DNA from: a virus
Reading direction: 5' to 3' (one strand)
DNA length: 36,915 nt
UHGV virus genome: UHGV-0071814
The notes under the pieces were generated by a model. It was not told the origin of the DNA. It did not search any database and saw only the letters and a program-made list of their open reading frames with translations. The position numbers were made by a program, and so were the translations under genes. Within the stretch, counting starts at the first letter, position 1, and each line of letters begins with the position of its first letter. Shown here in pieces: positions 2,158-36,847 of the stretch.

Positions 2158-4155
2158 CTATTCTGACAACGAATCAGACTTAGCACCCTGCGTCAGTGCA
2201 TTAATCGCTTTTTGCGCTTGCTGCATGGCTTTCTCAAACGCTGTCGATCCGCGTGGTGTGTTTGCCATTCGGAGCATTGCATTTCTGAATGGTTCGCTCT
2301 CATAGGCGCGAGTAAGAAGTCCGTAGCTTACCGCTGCGCCAGTTGTCGCCGGGTTCATTGCTGTCCCATACCCGATAATGAACGGGATGGTTTGCTGCCC
2401 TGTTGGTGTTGTTACTGCCGCTTTTGCAGCCTGCTGCGTGGATTGCAGGTAGTTTTTCAATCCTTTCAGATAAGCAGCGTCCTGCCCCTTAAATGTGATG
2501 CCAGTCTGGTTTTGCAGGATGTTAAGCTGTCGAAGGAACTGATCAGGGGAACCACCTGATTTCTCCATCGCCTTTCCAATGATGCCATTGCGCATTTGCG
2601 CCCTGCCAACACGACCAACTGAGTTATACAGCGTCTTAATTTCCGATTTGTTCTTGCTGAATAGCATGTTGTTGACAACTTCCGGCGTCAGGTCGCCTTT
2701 CATGAGAACATTCTTCAGCATGGTATTCTTTAGTTTCGCCGCTTCGTCAGCGTAGACGGCATTGGCCTGCTGATATTTACGGAGAGTATCGTTGCCAAGA
2801 TTCTGACCAATGGCACCATTGATATCGTCGGTCATTGCCTTGTAAACGCGCTGAATGGCAGCATCGGAACGGTTTGGTAACACTGGTCGCTCACCCTTCA
2901 CATCCATTCTGAACTGGCTGCGCAGATCGCTTAATTGCTTCAAATCCAGATTTACCGGACCATCAGGACCAGCATTGCGAACAAGCTCATCACGATAGGA
3001 CTGAAGTTTTGAAATAGTCTCGTTATCAGCAACCTTACCAAGCTTCTGCAGGTTAGATATTTCTGTATCAATCTGCTGAATTGCTCTTGCAGGCTGAATG
3101 TTTATTCCCGCCATAGCATTCTGAACCTGCTCCAGTCGATTACCGGCGGCACGACGAATTCCTGATGTTTTCGCTTTAAGGCTGTCAATAACAACCGCTG
3201 GATCATACTCACCGAATTTATCAGCAAATCTCTGAACCAACTGGCTTCTCGCTTCCTGTTGCGTTGCTCTCATTCCGCTTGTGCCAGCCAGGGGGATATT
3301 TTCTGCTGTCGTTTGCGCCATTTTTCCGACGCGGGAAGTAGGCTGTAACAGGTCTGTGGTGTGCAGAGGAACTCCTTCACGCTCTGCAAATCTGATAGCC
3401 TGCTGCGCTTCTGGCGCAATAGCACCACGAACGCCACGATAAGCAGCACCTAATCCACGTCCGGCAGCGTTAATAGCACCGCCAGCCAGAACGCCAACGC
3501 CTAAATCGGTGGCGAGTGCTTCCGCATCATCTTTCGCACTATTTGCAGCAAGTGATCCAACTGCGTTTTCTGCTAGAAGGCGAGTTGCCCCCTGAGCAAT
3601 TCGACCAGCAAGTGTTGGTGCCTGTGCTGCCGCTCTCTCAACGCCAGCAGGAGTGAGGTAAGGCAATGCTTCAGCAAATACCCTTCCCTCTGTCGTTTGT
3701 GGAGTGAGCGCGCCTTGCTGAAGGCCAAAGTCCTGCTCTAACCCCTGCGTTGTTACTCGTGGCGCTGGTTGATATGTACCATCGCCAATGCCGAGTTTAC
3801 CGCCAGCCCATGCCGCCGCGCTTGTTACAGCATCGGCAACTGATGCAGGTATGTTTGCCACGTTCACGCCAGCCTGCACCAGTCCGCGACCAGTTTCTTT
3901 CACGGCTTCACCAAGATCCGACATAAATCCACTTTGCTGTGGTTGTTGCTGTGATACTGGTTGTTGTGTCTCCACTGGCTGCACAGATGGCAATGGATAG
4001 GCAGCATAGAAAGCTTGCTTAGCCTGCTCTGCATTTTCTCCGGCTTGCGGGGCAACGACTTCATTGAAGTATTGCTCCTGAGCCTGCGCTTTTTGTTCTG
4101 GTGCTAACGCCTGATACTGTGGAGAGGCGATAACATCTTTCCATGCTTTAGCCAT
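2158..4155 (-). CDS. DNA ejection/injection protein (P22 gp16-like)
   Basis: 665-aa Ala/Gly/Gln-rich protein at the end of the gp7-gp20-gp16 block after the tail needle. Confidence 0.7.
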   Translation of the reverse strand: MAKAWKDVIASPQYQALAPEQKAQAQEQYFNEVVAPQAGENAEQAKQAFYAAYPLPSVQPVETQQPVSQQQPQQSGFMSDLGEAVKETGRGLVQAGVNVANIPASVADAVTSAAAWAGGKLGIGDGTYQPAPRVTTQGLEQDFGLQQGALTPQTTEGRVFAEALPYLTPAGVERAAAQAPTLAGRIAQGATRLLAENAVGSLAANSAKDDAEALATDLGVGVLAGGAINAAGRGLGAAYRGVRGAIAPEAQQAIRFAEREGVPLHTTDLLQPTSRVGKMAQTTAENIPLAGTSGMRATQQEARSQLVQRFADKFGEYDPAVVIDSLKAKTSGIRRAAGNRLEQVQNAMAGINIQPARAIQQIDTEISNLQKLGKVADNETISKLQSYRDELVRNAGPDGPVNLDLKQLSDLRSQFRMDVKGERPVLPNRSDAAIQRVYKAMTDDINGAIGQNLGNDTLRKYQQANAVYADEAAKLKNTMLKNVLMKGDLTPEVVNNMLFSKNKSEIKTLYNSVGRVGRAQMRNGIIGKAMEKSGGSPDQFLRQLNILQNQTGITFKGQDAAYLKGLKNYLQSTQQAAKAAVTTPTGQQTIPFIIGYGTAMNPATTGAAVSYGLLTRAYESEPFRNAMLRMANTPRGSTAFEKAMQQAQKAINALTQGAKSDSLSE

Positions 4156-27417: not shown

Positions 27418-28134
27418 ATGGAAAATAAAAAATCACTGACGACAGAACAGCTCGAAGACGCTAAGCGGCTTAAGGCTTTGTATGAGTCAAAAAAGAAAGA
27501 ATTGGGAATAACCCAATACTCAATCGCTGATGAACTGGGTATCACCCAAGGAGCGGTAGGGCATTATCTTAATGGCAGAAACGCGCTAAACGTTGAGGTT
27601 GCATCTGGTTTTGCACGATTGTTGCAAGTCTCAATTGCTGATTTTAGCCAGTCAATTGCTGCCAAGGTTGCAGAACAGGCAGAAAGCCTTAAGAGCGATG
27701 CCAACGTAAGGTATGCAGGGGAATACAGAGCAGGAAAGAGGTATCCGGTGTTAAGCAGTATCCAGGCTGGCTCGTGGTGTGAAGCATGCGAACCATACAC
27801 CATTAAAGACATAGATGTTTGGCTTGAGTCTGACGCGCATATTCAAGGTAATGCGTTCTGGCTTAAAGTGGAAGGTGATTCAATGACGGCACCGGTTGGG
27901 TTAAGCATTCCAGAGGGAACATTCGTTCTTTTCGATACCGGAAGGGAGGCGATCAACGGCAGCTTGGTCATAGCAAAACTTTCTGACTCTAACGAAGCAA
28001 CATTCAAGAAGCTGATAATCGACGGCGGAAATAAATACCTCAAGGGACTTAATCCTGCATGGCCTCTCGTGCCAATCAATGGAAACTGCAAGATTATAGG
28101 CGTTGCAATTGAGACAAAACTAAGGCTGGTTTGA
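27418..28134 (+). CDS. cI: CI-type prophage repressor (HTH N-terminal domain + S24 LexA-like peptidase domain)
   Basis: 238 aa; LTTEQLEDAKRLKALYESKKKELG..., FWLKVEGDSMTAP...; homologous to lambda cI as recalled. Confidence 0.9.
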   Translation: MENKKSLTTEQLEDAKRLKALYESKKKELGITQYSIADELGITQGAVGHYLNGRNALNVEVASGFARLLQVSIADFSQSIAAKVAEQAESLKSDANVRYAGEYRAGKRYPVLSSIQAGSWCEACEPYTIKDIDVWLESDAHIQGNAFWLKVEGDSMTAPVGLSIPEGTFVLFDTGREAINGSLVIAKLSDSNEATFKKLIIDGGNKYLKGLNPAWPLVPINGNCKIIGVAIETKLRLV

Positions 28135-28151
28135 TCACGCAAGGGGCGATT

Positions 28152-28520
28152 ATGGTTGGAACCGCTATAGCAAGCTTTTTGGGGATGTTGGCAATCTCAA
28201 CAATTTACGGCTTAGCGCATGCTTTTATTGCGAAATCTCTATCAGAAAAAATAAGCCAGGCTTGGGCGCATAGATCTGCTCGTTTCATGATTCTGGTGAT
28301 CATAGCAATACAAGGGATATCTGCATTTATCCTCTATGGATCAAGCTTATACCTGTTGTATCAAGGCGCGACATTTACGCCTTACACCAGTGATTACGGA
28401 ACTCTATACGATGGTAGTGAAGACATCTCTATGGCTTGGATCGTCTTTGGTTTATCTATGGCCGTGTCTGTTGTAGCAGACATCATTAAGGTAATTCTCG
28501 TCTTAACCTTCGCTGACTAA
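28152..28520 (+). CDS. Small multi-pass membrane protein directly downstream of cI (rex-position cargo)
   Basis: ATG at 28152 with AAGGGG upstream; about 122 aa with three or four hydrophobic segments; ORF-track start 28131 is TTG. Confidence 0.55.
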   Translation: MVGTAIASFLGMLAISTIYGLAHAFIAKSLSEKISQAWAHRSARFMILVIIAIQGISAFILYGSSLYLLYQGATFTPYTSDYGTLYDGSEDISMAWIVFGLSMAVSVVADIIKVILVLTFAD

Positions 28521-28606
28521 CCTATAATCCCGGCAGCAATAGCTATCGGGATCCACTTCACATATCCCGCATAAAAAGCACTGAACAAGCAGACACCGAA
28601 AAAATA

Positions 28607-28691
28607 AATATCCTTTGTATTCATTTGCTTATCATTATTTCACCCAAAATAAATACCTTGGGTATTTACACAATAAAATACCTACAGTATT
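28607..28691. promoter_or_regulatory. OL operator region/PL: three sites with the same AATAC-N5-GTATT symmetry (28607-28621, 28652-28666, 28677-28691); candidate PL -35 TTTACA / -10 TATTCT
   Basis: Motifs identical in half-sites to OR sites. Confidence 0.55.
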
Positions 28692-28739
28692 CTTTAGCCA
28701 TCAGCAGGACGCTGGTAGCCAAACGGAACAGATTGGCAG

Positions 28740-28779
28740 GCTCTTTAACATTGATGGGATTGTCCCGCCGAAATGCGGG
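28740..28779 (+). promoter_or_regulatory. nutL: boxA GCTCTTTAA and boxB hairpin CCCGC-CGAAAT-GCGGG
   Basis: Exact counterpart of nutR elements; about 110 bp upstream of N. Confidence 0.65.
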
Positions 28780-28887
28780 AACCAAAGAGTAGTTGGCTTT
28801 GGGGTGACGTGAAGTGCAGCTGCACGACGGCAACCGGAAGATAAGCACCCGGCGCGTCACCGCCAAAGTCAATCATCGGAGGTCAAC

Positions 28888-29193
28888 ATGACAGTAGTCA
28901 TTACATATCTGGCTGATGATAACGCCAGAAATCGCCGCAGAGCACGCAGACAGGCTCAACGTGAACAGGCAATGCAAGAGCAGCGACTGGCACGAAAAAT
29001 TGCGCTAAAGCTCTCTGGTTGCGTCAGAGCAGATAAAGCAGCATCACTCGGAAGCCTTCGCTGCAAGAAGGCAGAAGAAGTCGAGCGTAAACAGAACCGT
29101 ATTTACTACCGCAAGCCACGCAGTGAAATGGGTGTGACTTGTTCAGGCCGCCAGAAGCAACGCGGAAAATCAATTCCAGCTTATTACGATTGA
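28888..29193 (+). CDS. N: Antitermination protein N
   Basis: Arg-rich motif NARNRRRARRQAQREQ near N-terminus; C-terminus ...YRKPRSEMGVTCSGRQKQRGKSIP like lambda N; AGGAGG RBS. Confidence 0.8.
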   Translation: MTVVITYLADDNARNRRRARRQAQREQAMQEQRLARKIALKLSGCVRADKAASLGSLRCKKAEEVERKQNRIYYRKPRSEMGVTCSGRQKQRGKSIPAYYD

Positions 29194-29200
29194 GGTGAGC

Positions 29201-29338
29201 CATGCTCAAGAAAGTCAAACGCCGACTTTACAAAGAAGGTAGATATTCATGCCATTTGCCAAAATGCGACACAGCAAAATGGAGTGTCGACGATTGGTGT
29301 AACTGGATAGATAGATACGGAACTTGGTGGGATAAATA
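29201..29338 (+). CDS. Small Cys-rich hypothetical protein
   Basis: 45-aa ORF MLKKVKRRLYKEGRYSCHLPKCDTAKWSVDDWCNW...; GAGGTGAG upstream; below ORF-track cutoff. Confidence 0.3.
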
Positions 29339-29393
29339 ACAGGTAACTTAAGCATATTTACTTTCGCAGCAAACCACTTATTTGAGGTGAGAT

Positions 29394-29864
29394 ATGACAA
29401 AATCATGGAGCGTACCTTTTCCTGAATCAGAAACTGAACATGATGGAATGCCTGTTTTCTGGAGATTCCAGGCGACAGTTGAAGAAGATGGAATCAAAAT
29501 ATTCGCACTTCAATATATAGCTTTTCATCAGACAGAGCATTATGCATGGTTGGTTCCTGCGCATTGGATTGTTAATTTTAAACCAACACCAAATCAGTGG
29601 TTACAGGAATGGAAACAAAGGAGAAATAGATATGCAATTAAGAAAGTAGCAAAAAATGCAGAAAGATCTTTTGCATTCCCGACGAAGAAACTTGCCATTG
29701 AAAGTTTATTGCGCCGGAAGAAATACCATTTAATGAGAATCAAACAAGATTTGGCTGTTGTATCAACTCTTGTTGATGGGATGAAGAATATTGATACATC
29801 AACACCAGATATTGAATATAACTTTGGACACAACCAAGAAACAGAAAACTGGGTGTTTTATTAG
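29394..29864 (+). CDS. Hypothetical protein, AT-rich moron downstream of N
   Basis: 156-aa ORF with low GC; followed by two hairpin terminators. Confidence 0.5.
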   Translation: MTKSWSVPFPESETEHDGMPVFWRFQATVEEDGIKIFALQYIAFHQTEHYAWLVPAHWIVNFKPTPNQWLQEWKQRRNRYAIKKVAKNAERSFAFPTKKLAIESLLRRKKYHLMRIKQDLAVVSTLVDGMKNIDTSTPDIEYNFGHNQETENWVFY

Positions 29865-29968
29865 TACGAATAAGCACTGTGTATTCATTCCAACGAGTGA
29901 ATACACGGAGCAATGTCGCTCATAACTAAACAGGAGCCGACTTGTTCTGATTATTGGAAATCTTCTTT

Positions 29969-29994
29969 GCCCTCCAGTGTGAGGGCCTTTTTAT
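29969..29994 (+). terminator. Intrinsic terminator (GCCCTC-CAGTGT-GAGGGC + CTTTTTAT)
   Basis: Read directly; a second weaker hairpin plus T-run at about 30013-30035. Confidence 0.5.
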
Positions 29995-30058
29995 ATGCAT
30001 ACCAATAACGCTTCACTCGAGGCGTTTTCGTTATGCATTCAAACAGAAGGAGCATCCT

Positions 30059-30229
30059 ATGCAACAGTTCGCTATTGCAGGGGCGGCATTGGTTCGCCCT
30101 TTCAACCCGATTTTATCGGTACAGCATTCACGAAAAAATATTTTAACCGGAGCAGACTTTAAACAACCAAGAATGAAAAGTTTGCTCGAAAAGCTTTGGG
30201 ATATTTTGAAACAACAAGGCCGTCCATGA
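30059..30229 (+). CDS. cIII: CIII-like protein (candidate FtsH inhibitor)
   Basis: 56 aa MQQFAIAGAALV...LWDILKQQGRP resembles lambda CIII (MQYAIAG...LIDILNQPG) as recalled; AGGAG RBS. Confidence 0.45.
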   Translation: MQQFAIAGAALVRPFNPILSVQHSRKNILTGADFKQPRMKSLLEKLWDILKQQGRP

Positions 30230-30384
30230 GTTTTACAGATAACTGGTCAGACGAAGAATTCATTCGTCAGATGAAAGAATTAATCGGTAACGAAGGAGAT
30301 ATTCATGTCACTTGCAACCACAGTGAAGGAGAGCAAGTTACAGAGACGCATGTACACGCAGAAAGCTCTCTGGTATCGCCATAA
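30226..30384 (+). CDS. Small acidic hypothetical protein
   Basis: ATGA overlap with preceding gene; MSFTDNWSDEEFIRQMKELIG... Confidence 0.35.
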   Translation: MSFTDNWSDEEFIRQMKELIGNEGDIHVTCNHSEGEQVTETHVHAESSLVSP

Positions 30385-30483
30385 TGGTGACCGCGAAGGA
30401 ATGCGGGTATGCCTTAATTTGTCCCGAGTCGAAGTATTAAATCAGCGTTATTTCCTTGGGCCGTGTCCATTCTGAGGTGAATT

Positions 30484-31191
30484 ATGGATTTGAATAAATT
30501 CGATGAGCCATTCAGCCCTGAAGATATCGAATGGCGAATACAGCAAAGCGGTAAAACACGCGATGGCAAAGTGTGGGCTATGGTGCTGGCTTATGTCACG
30601 AACCGGGCAATCATGAAACGCCTGGACGATGTTTGCGGCAAAGCAGGATGGCGCAATGAATACCGCGATATTCCCAACAACGGCGGCGTTGAATGCGGCA
30701 TATCAATAAAGATTGATTCCGAATGGGTAACCAAATGGGATGCTGCTGAAAACACGCAGGTAGAAGCCGTCAAAGGTGGTCGTTCCGGTGCAATGAAGCG
30801 CGCTGCCGTTCAGTGGGGAATCGGTCGGTATCTGTATAACCTTGAGGAAGGTTTCGCACAAACATCTCTCGATAAAAAGCAGGGATGGCACAGGGCAAAA
30901 CTCAAGGATGGAACAGGATTTTACTGGCTCCCTCCATCGCTGCCGGGATGGGCAATCCCAGCATCTGGCAATCAACCATCACCAGAAAATACCAACCAGA
31001 AATCTCCATCGGTTGACTGCGAGCAAATCCTGAAAGACTTCAGCGATTATGCGTCAACAGAAACTGACAAGAAAAAACTCATCGAGCGTTATCAGCATGA
31101 CTGGCAATTAATGGCTGGCAATGAGGATGCGCAGGCTAAATGCGTTCAGGTAATGAGCATCAGAGTTAACGAACTAAAACAGGCGGCATAA
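30484..31191 (+). CDS. Single-strand annealing recombinase (Rad52/Sak-type SSAP)
   Basis: 235 aa; motif ...AAVQWGIGRYLYNLEE...; immediately upstream of ssb. Confidence 0.65.
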   Translation: MDLNKFDEPFSPEDIEWRIQQSGKTRDGKVWAMVLAYVTNRAIMKRLDDVCGKAGWRNEYRDIPNNGGVECGISIKIDSEWVTKWDAAENTQVEAVKGGRSGAMKRAAVQWGIGRYLYNLEEGFAQTSLDKKQGWHRAKLKDGTGFYWLPPSLPGWAIPASGNQPSPENTNQKSPSVDCEQILKDFSDYASTETDKKKLIERYQHDWQLMAGNEDAQAKCVQVMSIRVNELKQAA

Positions 31192-33118: not shown

Positions 33119-33666
33119 GCAAGATTGATTATCAGGCACTGCGTGAGGCGGCAGAACGTGCAATTTCGGCAATGGAACGCCTGTTAATGTTGCCAGTTGA
33201 TGATGATCCGATAAGCGAACAGGAACTTAAAGATTACGGTGTGGATATTGATGCGCTCAACGCCTTCAAATTTCTGGCCGGACCAGAAACCGTGCTGGCG
33301 CTGCTGGATGAACGGGAAAGAAACCAGCAATACATAAAACGCCGCGACCAGGAGAACGAGGATATTGCTCTTACTGTTGGGAAGCTGAGAGTTGAGCTTG
33401 AGGAGACAAAATCAAAACTCAACGAGCAGCGTGAGTATTACGAAGGTGTTATCTCGGATGGAAGTAAGCGCATAGCAGAGTTAGAAAGTGATTCTCAGGC
33501 ACAAAAGTTAGTTGAAGCAATCATTGTTGCGATAGAAAACGAACAGGAACGTCTTTTTGATGAAGATTACCTAATGGATTCGAAAGAATGCATTGACGTA
33601 ATTCGTGAAGAAGTAAAGCGATGGAATGATTCCCGCGCCGCTGGCATTCGCATCAAAGGAGAGTGA
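33115..33666 (+). CDS. Ead/Ea22-like protein
   Basis: N-terminus [16 protein letters not shown]... typical of Ead/Ea22 family as recalled; coiled coil. Confidence 0.5.
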   Translation: MSKIDYQALREAAERAISAMERLLMLPVDDDPISEQELKDYGVDIDALNAFKFLAGPETVLALLDERERNQQYIKRRDQENEDIALTVGKLRVELEETKSKLNEQREYYEGVISDGSKRIAELESDSQAQKLVEAIIVAIENEQERLFDEDYLMDSKECIDVIREEVKRWNDSRAAGIRIKGE

Positions 33667-33875: not shown

Positions 33876-34487
33876 ATGACCACTATTACCAGAGAACAGG
33901 CACAGAAAATTATTCAAGCAGCCGATGAGGTTATTAGTGCGCTGGCCGGAACTAATGAGGATGTTAACCCTGATAGCAATGACATGCTACGTCTGTGGGA
34001 TGACCTGAATGACCGTCACGCGCCCCCTGAAGTTGTGCGTGAGCTGGCACGAATTGCACTGGCATCACTGGGAGCAGAACCTGTAAGCCAAGCTTACAAC
34101 TTGCCAGAATTAATCGAAGGCATGGAGGTTTCCATTGATGTAAGCACTTGTGATGCGGATTTAGGTAATCGCTATTTCGGTACCGTCACCGAGGCGTTAG
34201 AACTTGATACTGCCAAGAATGGTTACATCCTCCTGGTTCAGGACGCAGAGCCAAACTTCGATGTAAATGGCAACTCTCCGGTAACTCCAGATGGTTGGAT
34301 AAGCTGTAGTGAGCGAATGCCCGCTCAAGATGATTGGATTTTAATTTATTCAAAGCACGGTGAGTATATGGCAGGACAGGGGCAAGGGGAATACGTGGAG
34401 TTGAGCGACGGCACTTTATCCTGGTTAGGGAACGCCTTGTTCTGGATGCTGCTACCAGAACCGCCGCAGGAGGTTAACCGTGGCTAA
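33876..34487 (+). CDS. DUF551-domain protein
   Basis: C-terminal WISCSERMPAQDDWILIY... fits DUF551 pattern. Confidence 0.5.
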   Translation: MTTITREQAQKIIQAADEVISALAGTNEDVNPDSNDMLRLWDDLNDRHAPPEVVRELARIALASLGAEPVSQAYNLPELIEGMEVSIDVSTCDADLGNRYFGTVTEALELDTAKNGYILLVQDAEPNFDVNGNSPVTPDGWISCSERMPAQDDWILIYSKHGEYMAGQGQGEYVELSDGTLSWLGNALFWMLLPEPPQEVNRG

Positions 34488-35390: not shown

Positions 35391-35810
35391 ATGAGGCCTG
35401 TACATTTCTCAAGATATCCAGACCTACCGCAATCATGTCAATCCAATAAATGGAGATTCCAGGTGGAAGAAGAAATCTTCACTCGTGAAGAAGCTGCGTC
35501 GTATCTGAAGGTAGACAAAGGCACTATCACACAGTGGATACGAAGTGGACGACTTCAGGCCGCAAAGATAAATCCAGATAAACCTAAAAGTCCATATCGC
35601 ATTTGCAAGTCAGACTGCATTGTGGCGCTTAAGTCTGTGAGACACAATAGCGCGGTGAATGCGGTTGATGTGCAGGAGGTTAAAGCATGTCAATCAAACT
35701 ACGCGGTGGCACGTGGCACTGCGATTTCGTCGCGCCAGATGGATCAAGAGTTAGACGCTCTCTTGAAACATCGGACAAAAGGCAAGCGCAAGAACTTCAC
35801 GATCGTCTAA
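35391..35810 (+). CDS. xis: Excisionase-like DNA-binding protein; start uncertain (ATG 35391 or GTG 35461); overlaps int by about 124 bp
   Basis: HTH-like segment FTREEAASYLKVDKGTITQWIRSGRLQAAKI; immediately upstream of int. Confidence 0.55.
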   Translation: MRPVHFSRYPDLPQSCQSNKWRFQVEEEIFTREEAASYLKVDKGTITQWIRSGRLQAAKINPDKPKSPYRICKSDCIVALKSVRHNSAVNAVDVQEVKACQSNYAVARGTAISSRQMDQELDALLKHRTKGKRKNFTIV

Positions 35811-36847
35811 AAGCAGAAGCGTGGAGAGTAAAAAATCTCGGGGAATCACCGAAAAAGCTATTCAAGGAAGCCTGCATACGGTGGCTGCGTGAGAAATCGG
35901 ATAAGAAGTCCATTGATGATGACAAGAGCATTATATCGTTCTGGATGTTGCACTTCAGAGAAACCATTCTCTCAGACATAACAACAGAAAAAATAATGGA
36001 GGCGGTAGACGGGATGGAAAACCGCCGCCATCGCCTGAACTGGGAAATGAGCCGGGACAGGTGTTTGCGGCTTGGCAAGCCAGTGCCGGGGGATAAACCA
36101 ACGTTGGAAAGCAAAGGAACGAAGACGCGGCATCTGGCAATACTTCGCGCTATTCTCAATATGGCTGTTGAATGGGGATGGCTTGACAGGGCGCCCAAAA
36201 TATCAACACCACGCGTTAAGAATGGACGAATCAGATGGCTTACAGAGGAGGAATCGAAGCGCCTGTTTGCAGAAATTGCTCCTCATTTCTTCCCTGTGGT
36301 CATGTTTGCAATCACGACAGGCCTTCGCCGTTCCAACGTTACAGACCTTGAGTGGTCACAGGTCGATCTGGATAAGAAAATGGCATGGATGCACCCTGAT
36401 GAAACAAAAGCTGGCAATGCGATCGGAGTTCCTCTTAACGAAACCGCATGCCAGATATTAAGAAAACAGCAGGGTCTCCATAAGAGATGGGTGTTTGTCC
36501 ACACCAAACCTGCCTACCGAAGCGACGGAACAAAAACAGCAGCGGTAAGGAAGATGAGAACCGACAGCAACAAGGCATGGAAGGGAGCGTTAAAGCGGGC
36601 AGGCATTAGCAACTTCCGCTTCCATGACCTGAGGCATACCTGGGCAAGCTGGCTGATTCAGTCCGGTGTCTCTCTTCTTGCACTTAAAGAGATGGGAGGA
36701 TGGGAAACTCTCGAAATGGTTCAAAGATACGCCCACCTTTCAGCCGGGCATCTCACCGAGCACGCGAGCAAAATCGATGCGATTATAAGTCGCAATGACA
36801 CAAATACGGCACAAGAGGAGAACGTAGTTTACTTAAATGTGAGATAA
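35687..36847 (+). CDS. int: Tyrosine-type site-specific integrase
   Basis: 386 aa; catalytic motifs ...FRFHDLRHTWAS... and ...VQRYAHL...; AGGAGG RBS; adjacent to tRNA. Confidence 0.9.
   Translation: MSIKLRGGTWHCDFVAPDGSRVRRSLETSDKRQAQELHDRLKAEAWRVKNLGESPKKLFKEACIRWLREKSDKKSIDDDKSIISFWMLHFRETILSDITTEKIMEAVDGMENRRHRLNWEMSRDRCLRLGKPVPGDKPTLESKGTKTRHLAILRAILNMAVEWGWLDRAPKISTPRVKNGRIRWLTEEESKRLFAEIAPHFFPVVMFAITTGLRRSNVTDLEWSQVDLDKKMAWMHPDETKAGNAIGVPLNETACQILRKQQGLHKRWVFVHTKPAYRSDGTKTAAVRKMRTDSNKAWKGALKRAGISNFRFHDLRHTWASWLIQSGVSLLALKEMGGWETLEMVQRYAHLSAGHLTEHASKIDAIISRNDTNTAQEENVVYLNVR

Follow-up and report, generated by a model that had tools for sequence, protein, structure and literature searches.

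What does an AT-rich gene between N and cIII of a lambdoid phage do, and are the two terminator hairpins that follow it its own? The question arises at positions 29201 to 30058 of the virus genome UHGV-0071814, of which the whole analysed stretch of 36,915 nucleotides (nt) is called the window here; features are on the + strand unless stated otherwise. A preliminary description, made from the letters alone, had read the locus as a moron that encodes a putative anti-defence or exclusion factor of a new family. Our analysis gives a different answer: the region very probably combines the variable accessory slot found in the pL operon of lambdoid phages with lambda's conserved tL2 region downstream of it. 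All of its elements are near-identical to catalogued ones and known at the sequence level: the 156-amino acid (aa) protein Gp45 of HK97 (L0079 of 933W), the DUF5484 protein encoded by Sf6 gene 36, the lambda terminators tL2a and tL2b, and the lambda small RNA (sRNA) PreS. As judged by sequence, a PreS homolog has its 3' end in the first "terminator"; the binding to Hfq, the expression confined to lytic growth and the activation of DnaN are properties reported for the lambda RNA.

A preprint (bioRxiv 10.1101/2024.10.31.621285) describes lambda LPR1, renamed PreS, as an Hfq-bound sRNA encoded between ral and ea10, the 3' end of which is tL2a. It is about 88 nt long, has a processed form of 68 nt and is made in the lytic cycle only. 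In the same preprint, PreS is reported to increase the level of DnaN by base-pairing ahead of the dnaN start codon, which frees the ribosome-binding site, and to repress alaS. Deletion of the seed or of the entire PreS lowered the phage yield two- to four-fold and reduced phage DNA replication, and the sRNA was found conserved at at least 92% identity in 2,537 genomes. The copy in the window would occupy about 88 nt at 29905-29992, with ends that hold to within a few nt, and a processed 68-nt form is predicted to start near 29925. Aligned with lambda 34012-33925, it has one mismatch in the body of some 80 nt and differs otherwise only next to the U tail, so that it lies within the identity of at least 92% to lambda LPR1 used in the preprint. 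Its 3' end is formed, as in lambda, by the GC-rich stem GCCCTC-CAGTGT-GAGGGC followed by a poly-U run, which reads CUUUUUAUAU here and GAUUUUUUAUC in lambda. The place in the pL operon is also shared with lambda. Two further differences were noted: the upstream gene is that of Gp45 and not ral, and there is no preceding terminator of the tL1 type, so that synthesis independent of N would be possible.

The single-stranded seed region of this PreS homolog (29942-29970) is complementary to the mRNA of the Escherichia coli dnaA-dnaN junction. Paired with the dnaN leader of strain MG1655 (-48 to -16 from the AUG), this linker gave a predicted duplex of -28.7 kcal/mol, and none of 1000 shuffled sequences did as well. 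Within this duplex, complementarity is exact over 12 nt (29958-29969) and over 10 nt (29944-29953). The linker alone was used in this retest, since the duplex formed by full-length PreS (-51.9 kcal/mol; mean of the shuffled sequences -46) was uninformative. No Rfam 15 family matched at E ≤1 anywhere in 28500-30600. We had also considered that the PreS block might correspond to the "boundary sequence" bsq5 of phage CUS-3, and rejected this, as bsq5 lies between cI and N.

The noncoding block as a whole behaves like a structured and widely shared unit. For the RNA of 29865-30075 the predicted folding energy is -70.7 kcal/mol (z = -6.6), which none of 200 shuffled sequences reached. A search with 29865-30058 matched 346 phage records, lambda among them and most at an identity of 90% or above, compared with 87 phage records that carry the Gp45 gene. 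Positions 29874-29994 repeat the lambda ral-ea10 intergenic region nearly base for base, and 29995-30058 correspond to the lambda ea10-cIII intergenic region. Since ea10 is absent here, as in HK97 and HK620, the two lambda blocks touch and tL2b abuts tL2a. The "tandem terminators" ascribed to the 156-aa gene are thus these two blocks of lambda, and the sRNA that ends at the first of them had been overlooked.

Three hairpins can be placed in this block. The preliminary description mentioned a 9-base pair (bp) inverted repeat at 29893-29920; the repeat is real, but it lies at 29879-29906, just 5' of PreS, and has a 12-bp stem (nine perfect pairs, a G-U pair and another two pairs) with the loop CAAC. 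It is identical in lambda (34013-34040), HK97, 933W, 434 and HK620. In the Salmonella phage epsilon34 (locus L022, about 1173-1198) the hairpin is kept with a different stem sequence, by compensatory changes; this single divergent lineage suggests that the hairpin has a structural role, for example in processing or in shielding the message before it, and it could mark the 5' processing site of PreS. The first terminator was located correctly at 29969-29994: the tL2a stem (29969-29986), identical to lambda 33933-33950, is followed by CTTTTTATAT up to about 29994. The second had been put at about 30013-30035, and its core stem is in fact found at 30007-30026, followed by TTCGTTAT. Lambda has the identical stem at 33493-33512. 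Here it caps a longer, imperfect hairpin (29995-30038) that combines tL2b with the cIII leader. As in lambda it stands directly upstream of the cIII Shine-Dalgarno site, and it differs from the lambda arrangement in that it abuts tL2a; the cIII allele downstream is unlike that of HK97. Both hairpins passed an intrinsic-terminator scan, tL2a as a canonical site. The HK620 record (AF335538) annotates the two as tL2A and tL2B, and a terminator is annotated at the first one in HK97 ("putative terminator"), 434 and epsilon34. The two are homologous to the lambda sites and stand in the same order before cIII; termination in vivo and its relief by N would be expected of them.

From which promoter are the genes ahead of PreS read? 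A consensus scan found no sigma-70-like promoter between the pL-like site (28665-28693) and 30232, and the only terminator-like sites on the + strand in 28500-30600 were those at 29969 and 30007. With no promoter-like site ahead of either the 45-aa or the 156-aa gene, both would be read from pL, with N. In lambda, the terminator tL1 follows N. The HK620 record annotates tL1 at the corresponding place, and 28665-29994 of the window holds no equivalent; N, Gp45 and PreS may all be N-independent immediate-early products in this phage, in HK97 and in 933W. We propose the following order of events. A transcript from pL would run through N, the DUF5484 gene, the Gp45 gene and PreS, and with no intrinsic terminator between pL and tL2a, these genes would be made at once upon infection or induction, without N. 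The first terminator to be met would be tL2a, and the roughly 88 nt that end there would be PreS. By analogy with lambda, PreS would then pair just upstream of dnaN, raise translation of the sliding clamp, repress alaS and support phage DNA replication. The second hairpin, tL2b, would serve as the leader of cIII as well.

The 156-aa ORF itself was confirmed at 29394-29864. Its product is 98.7% identical to HK97 Gp45 (98.7-99.4% across the proteins of HK97, 933W and phi24B) and corresponds to the hypothetical protein encoded after N in 933W, H-19B, BP-4795 and phi24B, in the last of which it is vb_24B_11c. HK97 Gp45, L0079 and vb_24B_11c have the same length and occupy the same place, after N and before tL2a; in the present phage the DUF5484 gene intervenes after N. 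The match to phrog_1636 covers the full length (residues 1-156, E 1e-111), and the gene is present in 598 of 5,426 complete E. coli genomes (11%), with the annotation "hypothetical" in every case. The family is therefore not new at the sequence level. The gene is indeed AT-rich, with 36.3% GC (29% at third codon positions, GC3) against 47.9% for the whole window. Among E. coli phage copies the ratio of nonsynonymous to synonymous substitution rates (dN/dS) was 0.04-0.07, which indicates strong purifying selection. Its carriers include the Shiga-toxin (Stx) phages 933W, H-19B and phi24B.

Homologs at 56-85% identity were found in prophages of Pectobacterium, Brenneria, Rosenbergiella and Cronobacter. 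In four such divergent loci (L005-L008, in Rosenbergiella, Brenneria and Pectobacterium prophages) a canonical intrinsic terminator of a sequence unrelated to tL2a lies within about 40-120 nt downstream, and three of these loci continue directly with xis. When 1.84 billion representative sequences were searched with a profile, 88 relatives emerged, most of them 125-170 aa long and 20-26% identical, and a reciprocal tblastn from one distant relative recovered HK97 Gp45. The wider family spans PHROGs 1636, 13631, 25384 and 28215, to which no function is assigned. The statement that the ORF has no recognisable motifs was borne out and can be extended to the family: none of 76 aligned members, the 156-aa protein included, matched Pfam, NCBIfam or PADLOC, and no source contained a named member. 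Two apparent fusion proteins among the representatives (P0056 and P0080) proved to be repeat or low-complexity artefacts. A supposed relationship to P22 gene 17 was rejected, because P22 was absent from the tblastn matches and the "gp17" feature of H-19B is a different gene. Literature searches for HK97 gp45, L0079, vb_24B_11c, phrog_1636 and NP_037731 returned nothing relevant. The protein is not mentioned in the expression paper on phi24B (PMC3342100), nor in those supplements of an accessory-gene screen (PMC12373910) that were searched as text, one of them only in part.

The preliminary description had proposed a structure prediction. AlphaFold2 reached a predicted local distance difference test score (pLDDT) of 64 with a shallow alignment of close homologs, and of 95.9 with the alignment of 76 sequences (predicted template modelling score 0.83). 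In this confident model residues 19-55 of Gp45 would form a three-stranded sheet; two short helices, a short strand at 83-86, a helix of 33 residues (98-130) and an ordered C-terminal tail would follow. A search for similar solved structures, the folds of anti-defence and defence proteins included, found none that resembles the model. The isoelectric point is 9.07, and a net charge of +12 is concentrated in residues 56-130, while both ends are acidic. Residues G33, T47, K87 and A101 are conserved across the wide family, as is the strand-helix motif K[RK]IxK..SRFAF.TKEEA...L..RK..QL.HL. A likeness of the segment RYAIKKVAKNAERSFAFPTKKLA to DNA-binding domains of the AP2/Arm type was not supported: hhalign aligned the segment with a probability of 0.4%. 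Fold-level relatives are encoded by phages from a wide range of bacterial groups, and some of these phages are strictly lytic.

The neighbours of Gp45-family genes give a further hint. In unrelated phages and prophages, relatives lie one to five genes from ral, Lar, C5 DNA methylase genes or genes with NADAR or SLOG domains (L003 3987-4723; L032 2800-4447; L012 2465-3980; L017 1-3914; L029 4001-6576; L011 3459-4981), an association that is suggestive only. Others adjoin Rha, YopX, ParB-like, RusA, DUF2800 or xis-int genes. In one prophage, of E. coli GF66.2, the Gp45 gene directly follows ral, which implies that Gp45 is not simply a substitute for Ral.

The 45-aa ORF, correctly placed at 29202-29339 directly after N, encodes a DUF5484 protein. 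It scored 44.5 bits against PF17583 (gathering cut-off 27; E 1.2e-11), matched phrog_1871 (E 1e-21) and clustered at 90% identity or more with the products of Sf6 gene 36 and SfI gene 44 (gp44), in a cluster named after the Sf6 gene 36 protein. Homologs at about 51% identity are present in roughly 1,000 T4-like phages (Tequatrovirus and relatives that infect Klebsiella or Enterobacter), where they sit among small ORFs between nrdH and gene 55 (for example L014 2495-2626); this tiny gene is thus common to temperate and virulent phages. The epithet "Cys-rich" was overstated. The protein has three cysteines and five tryptophans, none of the three cysteines is conserved in the T4-like homolog, and what is conserved is the motif PK.DT.KWSV.DW...ID..G.W. 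The likeness to Sf6 gene 36 accordingly lies in the score above the Pfam cut-off and the shared cluster, and the difference is in the T4-like homologs, which lack these cysteines. A literature search for DUF5484 gave nothing relevant.

How do these observations bear on the alternative explanations? The possibility that either ORF, or both, arose by chance is practically negligible: the 45-aa ORF is very short, but the Pfam and PHROG matches, the homologs across genera and phage families, the low dN/dS and the good Shine-Dalgarno sites, which can be read from the sequence ahead of both ORFs, all speak for genuine genes. The moron of the preliminary description would be an autonomous AT-rich unit with tandem terminators of its own and a product of the ral/sieB type, active in exclusion or against restriction. 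We consider this quite improbable. The gene does deviate in base composition (36% GC against 48% for the window), it does stand in the place of lambda ral and sieB, and the homologs of Pectobacterium, Brenneria and Rosenbergiella also precede intrinsic terminators, if unrelated ones. Low GC content and presence in some phages only are likewise shared with classic lambdoid morons such as HK97 gp15. Unlike these, however, the Gp45 gene has no promoter-like site of its own (none in 28693-30232), lies inside a repressed early operon, and is followed by terminators that belong to the shared architecture of that operon, since most of the 346 records with the tL2a block do not have the gene. Nor does either protein match the NCBIfam family of Ral or the Pfam family of SieB, and the gene adjoins ral itself in one prophage. 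Exclusion by a prophage is improbable for Gp45 on separate grounds: pL is repressed in lysogens, and some relatives belong to strictly lytic phages, in which exclusion by a lysogen would make no sense. It is also improbable, though somewhat less so than the moron, that the hairpins after the gene are terminators or sequence of a mosaic junction only, with no RNA product. The block does sit at a module junction, between the variable gene and the ea10-cIII region, and no Rfam 15 family matches it. Yet the lambda copy is an Hfq-bound sRNA with validated targets, according to the preprint cited above, and the window copy retains the PreS body and seed, preceded by a hairpin that shows compensatory change in epsilon34.

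What, then, might Gp45 do? We regard it as an early protein that the phage can do without, that moves horizontally and whose fold would be unlike solved structures. Our tentative preference is for an early counter-defence or host-interference protein that acts during lytic growth. In such a role its strongly basic centre, a strand plus a long helix, would make contact with nucleic acid or an acidic partner. It is a rather more doubtful generalisation that the whole family is a widespread class of early-phage effectors, directed against host defence (for example of the restriction type) or hijacking a host nucleic-acid process by an undescribed mechanism. Equally doubtful is that Gp45 is a nucleic-acid-binding accessory of the phage's own DNA metabolism or regulation, for instance at replication or recombination intermediates or early transcripts, and not in counter-defence. 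Such a role would suit the basic centre with its 33-residue helix, the conservation of K87, of the RSFAF strand and of basic helix residues, and the occurrence of the family in early replication and recombination modules beside the Rha, YopX, ParB-like, RusA, DUF2800 and xis-int genes. It is harder to reconcile with the failure to match a known DNA- or RNA-binding fold, with the negligible AP2-like score and with the many lambdoid phages that lack the gene and for which it is dispensable. Lambda Ral and Rac Lar, which alleviate restriction, are among the closest known systems. They are small accessory genes of the early pL operon in the same slot, and relatives of Gp45 stand beside ral or Lar in some elements; on the other hand, there is no sequence similarity to Gp45, and the sizes differ (66 aa against 156 aa).

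Several points weigh against the account of the operon and of Gp45 given here. The ends of PreS are derived from northern-blot sizes of the lambda RNA given in the preprint, and its expression in this prophage is predicted. Promoters and terminators were scanned for by consensus only, the tL2b tail (TTCGTTAT) is weaker than that of tL2a, and Rho-dependent termination between N and tL2a is possible. As for Gp45, the searches for homology, fold matches and published experiments gave no lead to a function. Anti-restriction genes are frequent in the early regions of temperate phages, which lessens the force of such neighbours, and as a basic protein Gp45 is unlike the DNA mimics Ocr and ArdA.

The wider setting is consistent with a lambdoid origin, as the gene order on the + strand of the window matches the lambda leftward early region. 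A LexA-type cI repressor gene (27418-28134) is overlapped at its end by the gene of a 129-aa multi-pass membrane protein (28131-28520; phrog_6534), in the position of lambda rexB, and a 35-aa hydrophobic ORF lies on the - strand (28517-28624) between this gene and pL. The membrane protein and the 35-aa ORF could be candidate exclusion or toxin-like genes expressed from the prophage. The pL-like promoter (TTTACA-17-TATTCT) stands downstream of the cI operon, as in lambda, and is followed by a nutL-like site at about 28740-28780, with a boxA (GCTCTTTA) and a boxB hairpin recognised by motif search, folding and reading of the sequence. The N gene (28888-29193) gave a weak match to the Pfam N_peptide family (E 0.002) and is annotated as N in matching phages. 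The slot had been named correctly in the preliminary description: both ORFs lie between N and cIII, an interval that is a variable accessory slot and holds ral and sieB in lambda, a Nun-like protein gene in phage 434 and a sieB-like gene in HK620. Its downstream end is the cIII-family gene at 30059-30229 (phrog_550, CIII; E 2.7e-22). Two overlapping small ORFs of 52 and 56 aa follow (30226-30475) and match PHROGs 2123 and 1723, the "recombinase" label of which is doubtful for proteins of this size. Genes for a Rad52-type annealase and an SSB also lie downstream of cIII. Judged by ORF sizes alone, the whole looks like a P22-like prophage with a tailspike (665-aa ORF, 2158-4155) and an integrase (386-aa ORF, 35687-36847).

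Nothing in this locus will surprise a specialist in lambdoid phages. Nevertheless, our findings indicate that what passes for two terminators behind a hypothetical gene is a copy of lambda PreS, which automated annotation will miss, since it lacks an Rfam 15 model. The Gp45 gene, and not ral, has PreS as its 3' untranslated end in HK97-, 933W- and P22-like prophages. Of the two conserved small proteins encoded here, Gp45 is more attractive for functional work than the DUF5484 protein, owing to its confidently predicted and unmatched structure and its frequency in Stx phages. It is common, strongly conserved and probably expressed very early, and the repeated occurrence of its relatives near restriction-evasion genes, suggestive as it is, adds a further reason for interest in the function of this family.

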